Shown: piece after piece, positions 2,051 through 47,728 of the stretch
Layout of the letters: each line of letters begins with the position of its first letter
Numbering within the stretch: position 1 is the first letter of the stretch
Source of the DNA: Lachnospiraceae bacterium
GTDB taxonomy: Bacteria > Bacillota > Clostridia > Lachnospirales > Lachnospiraceae
Direction: 5' to 3'
NCBI GenBank assembly: GCA_024698145.1
Contig: JAILRO010000014.1
Coordinates: 8,356-72,355, forward strand
DNA length: 64,000 nucleotides
Program-made: the position numbers and the translations under genes
The notes under the pieces: model-generated
The model's input: the letters and a program-made list of their open reading frames with translations, nothing else
What the model was told of the DNA's origin: nothing
The model's database searches: none

Positions 2051-2195
2051 TGCTTGGTAGGCTATATGTTATTCGTAAGCAGGTGCTTTATAAGTCGCCG
2101 GCACTTAGCGAATGCGAAGCATGAGGTTAGAGCCGCTGCGAGCTTATATGCAGCGAAAGCGTGCCTGCGATGAATGACATATGGACTAACAAGCA
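2051..2195 (+). repeat. structured intergenic repeat element, copy A (candidate cis-acting RNA)
   Basis: Shares the core blocks 'CGCCGGCACTTA', 'CCGCTGCG' and 'GAAAGCGTGCCTGCG' with the copies at 14745, 33857, 45666 and 45947. The ends 'tgcttggtaggctatatgttattcg' and 'cgatgaatgacatatggactaacaagca' are inverted complements. Apical hairpin is ATGC-GAA-GCAT. Confidence 0.75.
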
Positions 2196-14700: not shown

Positions 14701-14744
14701 ATAATGTTATCATAAGTAACTACACAATCAAGAAAAACTATATT

Positions 14745-14888
14745 GCGTTGTGTATATTATGCAGATTCTACAAGCAGGTGCTTATAAGCCGCCGGCACTT
14801 AACGAGCATGAAATGCGAGTTTAGTACCGCTGCGTGCGCATAGCAGTGAGAACGTGCCTGCGGTGGAACTGCATAATATGCACAACGT
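14745..14888 (+). repeat. structured intergenic repeat element, copy B
   Basis: The core 'GCCGCCGGCACTTAACGA..GAGTTTAGTACCGCTGCG..GAGAACGTGCCTGCGG' is enclosed by the complementary ends 'gcgttgtgtatattatgcag' and 'ctgcataatatgcacaacgt'. Apical hairpin is GCAT-GAA-ATGC. Confidence 0.75.
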
Positions 14889-14923
14889 AAAAAAGAAGTA
14901 TCGATATTGCAGAAGGAGAGAAA

Positions 14924-33830: not shown

Positions 33831-33856
33831 AGCACCTTGTTTAAAATGTATAATTA

Positions 33857-33997
33857 ATGTGTGGTTTTGTGTAGTTTCCATAAGCAGACCCTTTTTATAC
33901 GCCGGCACTTAACGAACACGAAGTGTGAGTTTAGTACCGTTGCGTAATAAAACGGAGCGGAAGCGTGTCTGTGTTGGAACTATGCAAATCCACACAT
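33857..33997 (+). repeat. structured intergenic repeat element, copy C (inside the ara operon)
   Basis: Core 'CGCCGGCACTTAACGA..GAGTTTAGTACCGTTGCG..GGAAGCGTGTCTGTG'. Complementary ends are 'atgtgtggttttgtgtagtttcca' and 'tggaactatgcaaatccacacat'. Apical hairpin is ACAC-GAA-GTGT. Confidence 0.75.
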
Positions 33998-34045
33998 ATG
34001 AAAATGATTAACAAGGTGCTCGACAAATTATGAAAGGAATTAATA

Positions 34046-34741
34046 ATGTTAGAAGATTTAAAGAAGGCAGTTTTTGAGGCCAACATGGAGCTTCCCCGCC
34101 GTGGCCTTGTAACTTACACATGGGGAAATGTCAGTGGAATCGACAGAGAGTCAGGTCTTTTTATAATCAAGCCAAGCGGTGTAGATTACGAGACGATGAC
34201 ACCTGACGATATGGTTGTTATGGACCTTGAGGGTAATAAGGTTGAGGGAAAATATAAGCCTTCCTCAGACACACCGACACATTTGGAACTTTACAAGAGA
34301 TATCCGGAGATTGGAGGAGTTGTGCACACGCATTCGCCGGAAGCAACTTCGTGGGCTCAGGCAGGAAGAAGTATTCCTTTATATGGAACAACCCATGCCG
34401 ATTATTTCTACGGTGAGATTCCCTGTGCGAGAAGTCTTACACCGGAGGAAATAGACGAAGCTTACGAGACCAACACAGGACTTGTTATAATCGAAACATT
34501 TGATAAAAAAGGACTTAATCCTATGCACACACCGGGAGTGCTTTGCACCAACCACGGACCATTTACATGGGGCAAGGATGCGGCAGAGGCAGTGCACAAT
34601 GCAGTAGTGCTTGAAGAAGTTGCCAAAATGGCGCTTAAGACAGAACTGATTAACCCGGATGTTAAGCCCGCACCGGATTGTATAAGAGACAAGCATTTCT
34701 TCAGAAAACATGGAGAAAATGCGTACTATGGACAGAATTAA
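34046..34741 (+). CDS. araD: L-ribulose-5-phosphate 4-epimerase
   Basis: 231 aa class II aldolase fold with 'TYTWGNVSG','IKPSGV','DTPTH','VVHTHS'. Confidence 0.93.
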
Positions 34742-45665: not shown

Positions 45666-45808
45666 CTACGGGTGAGTTGTATGTCCTTTGTGTCGGACAC
45701 GCTTTCGCTCGGTTATTCACGCAGCGGTACTAAACTCATGCAAGGCATTCGTTAAGTACCGGCGGTCATAAACGGTCCGAACAAAAGAACATACAGCAAC
45801 ACCCGTTG
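45666..45808 (-). repeat. structured intergenic repeat element, copy D (inverted orientation)
   Basis: The reverse complement reads '..GGACCGTTTATGACCGCCGGTACTTAACGAATGCCTTGCATGAGTTTAGTACCGCTGCGTGAATAACCGAGCGAAAGCGTGTCCGACA..', which is the same core as copies A-C and E. Confidence 0.7.
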
Positions 45809-45946
45809 CTGTTCATTGGAAAAGATTACAGCGTATATGTTCCGGTAAAGAGCGATAACGTTGCTTGCGTCGCATCGAGTGGATAATACACACCTTTCGT
45901 GTGATATGTATGCAATTCCTTCGATGTCGTGCAATATACAAATAAA

Positions 45947-46095
45947 CAGCTGTAACTTATGTTGCGATGTCCTTTAAAGAGGACCGTTTATGACCGCCGG
46001 TACTTAGGCACCGTACTTTGGTGCCTTACGTACCGCTGCGTGAATAACCGAGCGAGAGCGTGTCCGATTGAAGGACATACAACAAAGTTACAGCG
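45947..46095 (+). repeat. structured intergenic repeat element, copy E
   Basis: '..GGACCGTTTATGACCGCCGGTACTTAGGCACCgtactttGGTGCCTTACGTACCGCTGCGTGAATAACCGAGCGAGAGCGTGTCCG..'. The outer ends 'cagctgtaacttatgttgcgatgtcc' and 'ggacatacaacaaagttacagcg' are complementary. Confidence 0.7.
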
Positions 46096-46153
46096 TACGT
46101 TATATCTGCTTGAAGCGACGCAATGGAAAGTTGATGATTAGGGGAAAGAACGA

Positions 46154-47029
46154 ATGTCAGAGAGTTTACAATTAAAAGCGTATGCAAAGATTAACCTGGG
46201 TTTGGATGTTGTTGGACGACGTGAGAACGGATACCATGATGTCAGAATGATTATGCAGACAATAACTTTGTTTGATAAGTTAACATTTAAGGTGATAGAG
46301 GAAGATGAGATAAGAATATCTACGAATCTCAGTTTCTTAAGTCCCGGTGAGAATAATCTGGTGTACAAAGCTATTAAGCTTATCAAGGATGCATACAATA
46401 TTAAGCAGGGTATGGAGGTTGACCTCTTCAAATGCATTCCTGTAGCAGCGGGAATGGCAGGTGGAAGCACGGATTGTGCTGCTGCATTATACGGTACTTC
46501 TAAGCTTTTCGGGCTTAATCTTTCCAAGCAGGAGTTGATGGATCTCGGTGTTAAGCTTGGTGCTGACGTGCCTTATTGTGTTATGAGAGGTACGGCTTTA
46601 TCTGAAGGAATCGGTGAGATATTAACACCGTTATCACCAATGCCGGATTGTACGATATTGATTGCCAAGCCTTCGATATCAGTATCGACGAAGTTTGTTT
46701 ATGAGCATTTAGATGCGAAGGAGTCATACGAGCACCCGGATATAGATGGAATGATAAGCGCAATTAACAACCGTGATTTGCAGGGTATTGCAGACCGTCT
46801 TGGCAACGTGCTTGAAACGGTTACTGTACCGGAATATCCTGTTATTGATGAAATCAAAACATATATGAAAGAGCATGGTGCGTTAAATGCTCTTATGAGT
46901 GGTTCAGGTCCTACGGTGTTTGGTATTTATGATAATGAGGACGAGGCAACCAAGGCTAAGAATGCGTTACTCGATAAAAAACTTGCAAAGAATGCATTTG
47001 TCGTAAAGCCGTATAATGTTGGAGATTAA
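46154..47029 (+). CDS. ispE: 4-diphosphocytidyl-2-C-methyl-D-erythritol kinase
   Basis: 291 aa GHMP kinase with 'AKINLGLDV' and 'IPVAAGMAGGSTDCAA'. Confidence 0.92.
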   Translation: MSESLQLKAYAKINLGLDVVGRRENGYHDVRMIMQTITLFDKLTFKVIEEDEIRISTNLSFLSPGENNLVYKAIKLIKDAYNIKQGMEVDLFKCIPVAAGMAGGSTDCAAALYGTSKLFGLNLSKQELMDLGVKLGADVPYCVMRGTALSEGIGEILTPLSPMPDCTILIAKPSISVSTKFVYEHLDAKESYEHPDIDGMISAINNRDLQGIADRLGNVLETVTVPEYPVIDEIKTYMKEHGALNALMSGSGPTVFGIYDNEDEATKAKNALLDKKLAKNAFVVKPYNVGD

Positions 47030-47056
47030 TAAGTAACTTTCAATGGAGGCTGTGAT

Positions 47057-47728
47057 ATGGAGATAAAATACGATGGAGACAATGAATATCTGCCGTTAAG
47101 AGATTTGGTTTTTCAGGCACTTCGTCAGGCGATAATCACGGGTGAGTTTTCGCCCGGTGAGCGACTTATGGAGATTAAGATTGCCAATAAGCTTGGTGTT
47201 TCCAGAACGCCTGTAAGAGAGGCGATTCGAATGCTTGAACTTGAAGGTCTTGTTGTGATGATTCCAAGACGTGGGGCTGAGGTTGCAAGAATCACAGAGA
47301 AAGACTTAAGAGATGCGCTTGAGGTTCGTACAGCTATCGAAGAATTGTCTGTAGAACTTGCCTGCGAGCGAATAGATGAGGAAGGCAAGGAGAGACTCAA
47401 GAGAGCGTGTAATGAGTTCAAAGATGCTATCGGAACAAAGCATGTACAGAATATTGTGGACGGAGACGTGAAGTTCCATGATGTTATTTTTGAAATGACA
47501 AGGAATCCGAGACTTATAAGTATTGCGCAGAATCTCAGAGAGCAGGTATATAGATATAGGGTTGAATATGTTAAGGATTTTTCTTATCATGACGTACTTG
47601 TTACGGAGCATTATGAGATAACTAACGCGATTCTTACCAATGATGTTGATAAGGCGAAAGAGATTATGAGAAAGCACCTTACTAATCAGGAACTTATCGT
47701 CATCAAAAATCTTAAAGATACCCTATAA
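47057..47728 (+). CDS. GntR-family transcriptional regulator (FadR/FCD subfamily)
   Basis: N-terminal winged HTH 'ANKLGVSRTPVREAIRMLELEGLV' plus a C-terminal helical FCD-like domain. Confidence 0.88.
   Translation: MEIKYDGDNEYLPLRDLVFQALRQAIITGEFSPGERLMEIKIANKLGVSRTPVREAIRMLELEGLVVMIPRRGAEVARITEKDLRDALEVRTAIEELSVELACERIDEEGKERLKRACNEFKDAIGTKHVQNIVDGDVKFHDVIFEMTRNPRLISIAQNLREQVYRYRVEYVKDFSYHDVLVTEHYEITNAILTNDVDKAKEIMRKHLTNQELIVIKNLKDTL

Follow-up and report, generated by a model that had tools for sequence, protein, structure and literature searches.

Five intergenic elements in a Lachnospiraceae contig are probable relics of a MITE family with a conserved folded core

Results

Five copies of a structured element in the window

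We investigated a stretch of 64,000 nucleotides from a Lachnospiraceae bacterium (assembly GCA_024698145.1, contig JAILRO010000014.1, positions 8,356 to 72,355 of the forward strand), which is called the window hereafter. A first reading of the letters alone, the original prediction, had proposed that the window contains five copies of a structured intergenic element of about 145 nt. These copies lie at 2051–2195 (copy A), 14745–14888 (copy B), 33857–33997 (copy C), and 45947–46095 (copy E) on the plus strand and at 45666–45808 (copy D) on the minus strand. An exact search and a covariance model agree on this number and on these positions. The CGCCGGYACTTA block occurs without mismatch exactly five times in the window, on the plus strand at 2096, 14790, 33900, and 45995 and on the minus strand at 45753–45764. 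The covariance model of the family recovered exactly these five copies and nothing else when the whole window was searched with filters off (69–85 bits), and the reverse strands of the five copies scored 14–16 bits with the same model.

Each copy consists of a closing stem, named P1, and a core, which the covariance model places at 2072–2173 in copy A (69.1 bits), 14767–14866 in copy B (73.6 bits), 33877–33977 in copy C (83 bits), 45688–45787 in copy D (82.7 bits), and 45972–46072 in copy E (85.1 bits). Copies D and E are the left and right members of a divergent pair, with a spacer of 138 nt between their 5′ ends (45809–45946), and the apical hairpin of copy E is of a long type. In the alignment of the five copies, 44 columns are invariant and most of them fall within the three conserved blocks that had been named before. 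In addition, the elements are located 17–44 nt past the end of the upstream open reading frame (ORF) and 35–58 nt ahead of the next start, as had been measured earlier. Four of the five run in the sense direction of their neighbouring genes, and deoC, araD, and ispE, the downstream genes that were checked, are unrelated.

When folded, every window copy forms a long closing helix, with free energies of −58.9 to −70.2 kcal/mol and z scores of −5.7 to −9.5, and none of 200 shuffles reached the stability of the native fold. The antisense strands are also structured because the element is a palindrome, yet they fold more weakly than the sense strands in all five cases.

A three-way junction core maintained by compensatory changes

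We aligned 120 distinct copies of the family that were picked via the core pattern. Because this first set had been picked by the core pattern, a second sample was made of 24 distinct copies whose loci were picked by the terminal repeat alone (see below). In the core, helix P2 closes a junction, P3 leads into a long P4/P5 hairpin, and P6 is a 2-bp hairpin with a GNRA loop, which in copy A is GCGAAAGC at 2153–2160 on the plus strand. The long P3–P5 hairpin contains an invariant U.U mismatch and a YU bulge.

In the 120 copies, 83% of cells were paired, compared with 27–45% after the partners were slid by 1–3 columns. The covariation score was 0.344 versus 0.07–0.11 for the slid partners, and it was equalled by none of 500 shuffles. 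Several core pairs occur in all four Watson-Crick types with scarcely any breaks. The 24-copy sample gave nearly the same picture, with 83.9% of cells paired, double changes in 26 of 32 pairs, and again 0 of 500 shuffles. Furthermore, pairs that seemed invariant in the first sample covary in the second; for instance, C28-G73 is CG in 11 copies and UA in 11. The fold is therefore kept by compensatory changes in both samples, as had been proposed from the five window copies. The exchanges in the apical hairpin were as originally described, and so was a pair that alternates between C-G, U-A, and C.A, which family-wide is UA in 65 copies, CG in 25, and CA in 29.

The core also shows features that exist on a single strand only. 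The P6 loop is GNRA in 119 of the 120 copies (GAGA 46, GAAA 35, GCAA 25, GGAA 10, GGGA 2, and GCGA 1, with one AAAA), and its closing pair (CG 110, UA 10) covaries again in the 24-copy sample. Two core positions hold tandem G.A/A.G pairs that alternate with Watson-Crick pairs, an A.G mismatch is kept in 119 of 120 copies, and U.G and G.U wobbles lie at the base of P2 opposite an invariant GUG. These motifs, together with the gap between 69–85 and 14–16 bits on the two strands of the window copies, bear out the earlier claim of a structured multi-copy element whose fold belongs to one strand. No conserved start codon was found on inspection of the core.

Size variants were seen as well. In the orthologues of copy D from the 95% relatives (L144:1014–1165, also L145 and L146), an insertion of 52 nt that could fold into a hairpin of its own interrupts the otherwise invariant ACUU|A internal loop, and another locus (L120, MT836394) has an expanded core with two additional hairpins inside. 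It seems that small hairpin modules insert into these elements.

The P1 stem and its G.U bias

Family-wide, the hairpin spans 122–274 nt (median 150), and its stability ranges from −59 to −95 kcal/mol. The closing helix had been described as different in sequence in every copy. This is true in the window, since its five copies stem from different old lineages. It does not hold in genomes with a recent burst (for example Robinsoniella, a Blautia metagenome-assembled genome (MAG), and the 'GCAAAGTC' subfamily), where P1 is common to the copies; between older lineages P1 differs. At two orthologous loci, the cores are 95–96% identical and much of P1 has been replaced on both arms with complementarity retained.

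The original prediction had also counted about 10 G.U pairs and no A.C pairs in the closing helices. This was overstated, and the five window copies have 13 G.U and 5 A.C in a count that also spans P2 and flanks outside P1. The bias in P1 is nevertheless real across the family (64 G.U to 17 A.C). A strand bias taken from minimum-free-energy folds was dropped: such folds gave 242 G.U pairs for the sense strand and 251 for the antisense strand, and the count is circular because the method favours whichever strand is folded. As a substitute, the two arms were aligned with each other, the right one in reverse-complemented form, and every mismatch was scored equally. When everything aligned was counted, the family showed 218 G.U versus 190 A.C (p = 0.18), and isolated P1 mismatches gave 55 G.U versus 22 A.C (p = 2e-4).

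The P1 ratio of G.U to A.C was 21:6 in copies sense to both neighbouring genes, and 17:7 in copies antisense to both. Where the neighbours diverge it was 17:2, and where they converge 9:2. The bias thus tracks the orientation of the element in all contexts and not the direction in which its surroundings are transcribed. This speaks against a mutation bias coupled to transcription, and equally against selection acting in sense or antisense read-through mRNA. Consistent with it are selection on the sense strand of the element, or inheritance from master copies that had been under such selection.

Terminal repeats, target duplications, and an IS1182-like partner

The intact form of the element is about 210 bp long and has 17-bp terminal inverted repeats (TAGGCRWTTGCGAAACT) that lie about 18 nt outside P1. 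We found 27 repeat-bounded pairs, and 22 of them are 203–213 bp long and contain the core. Direct repeats of 8 nt or more abut the ends in 21 of 28 repeat-bounded elements (median 10, range 9–13, AT-rich), compared with 1.5% in a control with shuffled left/right pairings. Thus, the statement that the element has no target-site duplication stands for the window copies and fails for intact members. Among canonical copies, conservation amounts to 1.5 bits per position in the repeats, 1.2 in P1, 1.4 in the core, and 0.4–0.5 in the two spacers. The cargo, about 150 nt long, is enclosed by the repeats and by these spacers, which are not conserved.

When metagenomes were scanned for the terminal repeat, we obtained short pairs of various sizes along with six pairs that are 1751–1783 bp apart. 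The ends TAGGCRWTTGCGAAAC...GTTTCGCAAWYRCCTA are common to the copies of about 210 bp and to these long elements, which we describe as IS1182-like insertion sequences with 17-bp repeats (TAGGCGTTTGCGAAAC). The repeat pairs delimit them at L164:638–2405, L195:1410–3192, L208:952–2717, L247:809–2559, L253:870–2638, and L268:582–2348. Five of the six contain a single open frame of 483–516 codons (that of L195 has only 137 codons), and four of the six are flanked by AT-rich target duplications of 11–12 bp. The products of L164 and L208, the two that were scanned (490–507 aa), have a DUF772 domain (E 5e-13) and, weakly, DDE domains. Among the NCBIfam models, IS1182 fits them best (NF033551, E 3e-20) at 72–73 bits versus a curated cutoff of 270, and an IS5-family model also matches weakly. 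Therefore, the transposase appears to be a distant relative of IS1182 and no clear member. The insertion sequence of 1.75–1.78 kb may represent an undescribed group.

Homology between the insertion sequence and the short element ends at the 17-bp repeat, and the core model found no match in the insertion sequence. Other short elements (L132/L133) have the same repeats and duplications around unrelated interiors that lack the junction fold. In the repeat-selected sample, 23 full-length cores were found in 21 of 100 loci. Because the insertion sequence is without the core, and because coreless elements with the same ends carry duplications, the core is not needed for transposition; the structured core is instead cargo on a transposon vehicle, as the unrelated interiors between the same ends indicate. 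No autonomous parent was found in the core-selected loci, and no half-cores split by a gene were found.

In short, the family has what is expected of miniature inverted-repeat transposable elements (MITEs): terminal repeats that match an insertion sequence, target duplication, and short, multi-copy elements that differ in presence and absence. The match of intact members to insertion sequence ends with duplications, an outcome that the original prediction had itself named as refuting, speaks against its picture of a REP/BIME-like RNA element unrelated to transposons.

The window copies and their sites in relatives

In the window, canonical terminal repeats were not found above chance, and the one-sided repeat scores of the five copies are 7–10 of 15 where random sequence averages 7.8. 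Copy B seemed by eye to have decayed terminal repeats, but these are not claimed because they score 8 and 10 of 15, which is the chance level or only slightly more. The window copies are thus assigned to the family by homology of core and stem. We aligned them with a profile of 22 full-length canonical elements (209 positions). Copy B covers profile positions 22–180 (window 14733–14892), which include both P1 arms and extend into both spacers. The coverage is 34–172 in copy C, 54–158 in copy A, 60–159 in copy E, and 66–149 in copy D. Therefore, copies B and C are homologous to canonical elements through the stem, and copy B also into the spacers.

Across the family, P1 pairing is 95.0% in copies with a chance-level repeat score (n = 61) versus 93.6% in canonical copies (n = 22), in a sample that was picked for an intact core and in which some of the seemingly repeat-less copies may use variant ends. 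Since pairing is as good in copies without recognizable repeats, all five window copies among them, the hairpin outlasts the transposition signals.

Two window copies have outer inverted repeats of other kinds. Around copy C, a left arm (AGCACCTTGTTTAA, 33831–33844) pairs with a right arm (TTAACAAGGTGCT, 34008–34020); the left arm stands at the canonical position of the terminal repeat, but its sequence is different. Around copy E, a left arm of 21 nt (45865–45885) is 81% complementary to a right arm at 46103–46123, which belongs to the stretch of about 31 nt described below.

The synteny of RNase H and deoC around copy A is conserved in relatives, and the spacer varies. In the nearest relative (L139, deoC 94% identical), the site is empty, and the stop codon is followed by AGGAGATACGAC-ATG, the 12 nt found after the element in the window. 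It is also empty in L140 (deoC 92%), which has a 56-nt spacer whose ends, by eye, resemble the window flanks up to the P1 boundaries. A decayed remnant occupies the site in L141 and L142 (deoC 88%), and L143 (deoC 85%) has an intact variant in the opposite orientation. The nearest relatives without copy A have the same ribosome-binding site and start codon. An exact look-up of the deoC of the window found no entry.

Meanwhile, copies D and E are both present in relatives with 95–96% identical IspE and absent from 80% relatives, in which the spacer is 97 nt long. A stretch of about 31 nt just 5′ of the ispE ribosome-binding site (46103–46133) is missing in all of the 95–96% relatives. Copy C is absent from the araB-araD spacer of two syntenic loci (L153 and L155, araD about 80% identical). 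At the position of copy C, the empty spacer of L155 holds an unrelated hairpin, AATGAGTCA...TGACTCATT (L155:1938–2000).

Fourfold-degenerate sites of the genes flanking D and E differ by 16–28% versus about 1% in the D-E spacer, and this looked like a 15–25-fold excess of conservation in the D-spacer-E unit. However, a sliding profile shows that divergence is mosaic and that the coding DNA adjoining D and E differs by only 1.5–3%. The claim of strong purifying selection on this unit was dropped because of the mosaic background. In a comparison with L144 and L149, the window differs by 15–18% at 46623–47223, which covers the second half of ispE and the first part of a GntR-family gene, and by 0–3% in the next 1.3 kb. 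This mosaic looks like recombination with a more distant lineage.

Gene context and divergent pairs

Relative to the flanking genes, 34 copies of the family were sense (++) and 25 antisense (−−), while 18 lay within divergent (−+) and 9 within convergent (+−) gene pairs. The ratio of sense to antisense was 10:12 for copies with one or both repeats and 24:13 for copies without repeats. Orientation is therefore near random, which the original prediction had named as a refuting outcome and which weakens its picture of an RNA tied to host transcripts.

Copies that lie at most 300 nt apart are divergent, with their 5′ ends facing each other, in 7 of 7 unrelated loci including D/E, an outcome with a chance of (1/4)^7. 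The members of such a pair each have their own stem, and their cores are 68–86% identical to one another.

A second repeat, aaaaggctgttaaggaaaagcgccatcaaaaacaa...ctgttgctgtt, occurs about 170–250 nt upstream of the element in L011, L049, L060, L066, L079, and L113 and is reverse-complemented in L004; it accompanies a subfamily that is richer in GC. On the downstream side, L004, L015, L066, and L112 contain a matching GGCTGAACTGTTAC motif. The second repeat may be another mobile element or part of a larger composite.

Species range and database searches

When one genome of each species was scanned for the three conserved blocks, at least 119 loci were found. Among the loci listed, nearly all are labelled Lachnospiraceae or unclassified Clostridia/Eubacteriales, and the named carriers include Blautia, Acetatifactor, Roseburia, Eisenbergiella, Robinsoniella, [Clostridium] symbiosum, and [Lactobacillus] rogosae. 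Of the loci that were fetched, mostly 8 kb in length, 18 have more than one copy; the 64-kb window has five. In addition, a canonical copy with repeats and duplication lies in a Bacteroidota-labelled MAG (L028, JAMPGV010000002.1, labelled Muribaculum sp.), which is either a binning error or a transfer beyond Lachnospiraceae.

The original prediction could not place the element in an RNA family, and Rfam 15 likewise gave no match at the gathering score in the whole window and nothing relevant at E values up to 10 around copy A, a canonical copy, or D/E. Literature searches on Lachnospiraceae MITE/REP and on MITE with GNRA found nothing relevant. Thus, the family is apparently undescribed, being absent from Rfam and the searched literature. 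Plasmid records contained no match to the element, and phage records yielded four unannotated fecal 'phage' contigs, two of which bear variant copies. The core scan of 2.9 million viral contigs gave a single match, and the matches of a terminal-repeat scan were mostly chance. On the basis of the lone core match, we dismissed the possibility that the family is phage-borne.

Discussion

We propose that the five elements of the window are worn-down relics of one non-coding MITE family that is abundant in Lachnospiraceae and carries a conserved folded core, and we put the probability of this explanation as a whole at about 0.75. As a mechanism, an IS1182-like transposase would move the element of about 210 bp in trans, and the cargo would comprise P1, the three-way junction with P2, the P3–P5 hairpin, and the P6 GNRA hairpin.

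Several results weigh against this explanation. The five copies of the window lack terminal repeats as well as duplications. What ties the insertion sequence to the short element is the identity over 17 bp and the similar duplications, and the transposase falls far below the curated IS1182 cutoff. The comparison of stems with and without repeats carries the selection for intact cores noted above. For the fold itself, its orientation relative to genes is close to random, pair 32-66 is C.A in 29 copies (a wobble if the opposite strand folds), and no sigma-70-like promoter was found in the 138-nt D-E spacer. As the spacers of canonical copies are unconserved, there is also no conserved internal promoter. 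Finally, the apparent excess conservation of the D-spacer-E unit vanished against its mosaic background, and the case for an RNA is drawn from the type of motifs and from strand asymmetry.

On those two grounds, we lean slightly towards RNA as the folded species. Such an RNA would be made via read-through or from weak promoters. A further step, which we regard as tentative, is that the cargo may be a gene for a functional RNA, such as a small structured RNA of a new class or a module resembling a ribozyme, and that it spreads through Lachnospiraceae genomes on the ends of a DNA transposon. This idea is compatible with the strand-specific covarying fold, the GNRA loop, the invariant junction, and the persistence of the element without transposition signals. 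The gene would have no promoter of its own and would be expressed from any transcript that crosses the cargo. The long, perfect P1 duplex would allow the cargo to be excised or protected in the manner of an RNase III-type stalk, and the divergent pairs (7 of 7) would ensure one sense copy for either direction of transcription. Somewhat more speculative is the role of P1 itself. By analogy with the Correia/NEMIS elements, the duplex could be a stalk for double-strand-specific (RNase III-type) processing or stabilization that would release or shield a junction RNA of about 100 nt.

The strongest rival is that the fold acts as single-stranded or cruciform DNA, for example as a transposition structure or as a priming or pausing signal, and has no RNA function. 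The excess of G.U (G.T in DNA) follows the orientation of the element even where it is antisense to both neighbours (17:7), and the near-random gene orientation and the failure to find a conserved promoter in the D-E spacer or the canonical spacers agree with a DNA structure. Mini-hairpins of the GCGAAAGC type are also unusually stable as DNA. However, DDE transposases of the IS1182/IS5 kind work on double-stranded ends and have no need of an internal folded strand, and both the insertion sequence, which gives no core match, and the coreless elements with the same ends, which still have duplications, manage without it. In addition, the pattern is that of a typical RNA: the N of the G-N-R-A loop varies by transversion, its R is always a purine, and sheared G.A pairs occur in tandem. 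The stem also remains in copies without terminal repeats. On balance, we consider this alternative rather unlikely.

A cis-acting regulatory RNA for the downstream gene (riboswitch, leader, attenuator, or thermometer) is close to refuted. The sense orientation of four of the five window copies, which end 35–58 nt before a start codon, would suit a leader, and a variable stem closing a junction with invariant unpaired nucleotides resembles an aptamer. Against this, deoC, araD, and ispE are unrelated, 25 copies run antisense to the long ORFs on both sides, and the nearest relatives without copy A have an unchanged ribosome-binding site and start codon. The target duplications of the family, its transposase partner, and its high copy number (five in 64 kb, and more than one in 18 fetched loci) speak against a regulator of this sort as well.

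It is just as improbable that the elements are intrinsic terminators or plain 3′-end stabilizers with an incidental core. Very stable hairpins between genes might be so interpreted, and the stem base of one subfamily (L001, L032, and L111) carries A-runs and T-runs. However, of 113 copies, 5 have a T-rich tail behind the hairpin when read in sense and 11 when read in antisense, compared with 6 at a control position 40 nt further on, and a stabilizer has no need of invariant junction nucleotides, a GNRA loop, and covarying inner helices.

The comparison with REP/BIME elements or REPINs spread by a RAYT (Y1/HUH) transposase, which the original prediction had drawn, is refuted on its defining features for intact copies: the elements are likewise intergenic, palindromic, multi-copy, and found in either orientation, but intact copies have 17-bp terminal inverted repeats and duplications of 9–13 bp, their partner encodes a DDE transposase with DUF772 instead of a Y1 enzyme, and the hairpin of 122–274 nt far exceeds REPs, which are 20–40 nt long, have a conserved 5′ tetranucleotide, and make no duplications. 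Integron attC sites, retron non-coding RNAs, and transposon guide RNAs (TnpB/IscB omega, IS110 bridge) were rejected on anatomical grounds, since the variable part of our element is double-stranded and no gene accompanies it. Single-strand plasmid origins were also considered and rejected; the tests that covered these ideas were the Rfam searches.

The MITE family proposed here resembles several known systems, with which it was compared by general description and not by sequence. ERIC/IRU elements of enterobacteria are also intergenic imperfect palindromes (about 127 bp) in either orientation, are kept at the same loci across related strains, show compensatory stem evolution that has been interpreted as an RNA-level constraint, and have size variants by internal insertion, as in the D orthologues and L120. 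However, ERIC/IRU elements have no demonstrated transposase match or regular duplications and no multi-helix junction with GNRA, whereas our family has ends that match an insertion sequence and a three-way junction core.

The bcr1 elements of the Bacillus cereus group are MITE-like Firmicute elements about 155 bp long. They have terminal repeats and a target duplication, occur in many intergenic copies, and are predicted to share a conserved RNA fold. They differ in a short fixed TTTAT duplication (9–13 bp here), and in our family there are an IS1182-like partner and the same ends on unrelated interiors. To our knowledge, no split into cargo and vehicle has been described for bcr1.

Correia/NEMIS elements of Neisseria are MITEs that have terminal inverted repeats and a target duplication. 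They are transcribed together with their neighbours, and their long hairpins, the model for our guess about P1, are reportedly cleaved by RNase III. Their hairpin is formed by the terminal repeats themselves, with a TA duplication; in the present family, in contrast, the hairpin is internal, set off by unconserved spacers, and caps a conserved junction. MIC231 also has insertion sequence ends (those of IS231) that carry unrelated cargo and are mobilized in trans, but its cargo is protein-coding and 1–2 kb long, compared with a non-coding structured module of about 150 nt here. Finally, the partner itself resembles the IS1182 family in its size (1.75–1.78 kb), its single ORF of about 490–510 aa, and its N-terminal DUF772 plus DDE domains; the short element has only the 17-bp repeats in common with this partner.

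Lachnospiraceae are dominant in human and animal guts, and the element appears to be high-copy in many of their genomes. More than 140 distinct copies with near-universal covariation of the helices are evidence of a quality that is rare for an unannotated bacterial motif of this size, and the clear split of vehicle and cargo offers a tractable case of a DNA transposon that may spread a non-coding RNA. The element inserts just 5′ of ribosome-binding sites and can mislead gene callers. One NCBI version of the araD product (P0241, 325 aa) is 94 residues longer at its N terminus than that of the window (34046–34741, 231 aa). If P0241 comes from this organism, its start would lie upstream of copy C and its frame would read through the element, which is possibly a gene-call artefact. 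The repeat may also break metagenome assemblies. The ends of seven contigs or loci (L015, L017, L036, L064, L069, L098, and L116) fall inside a copy of the element, as is expected if it does.

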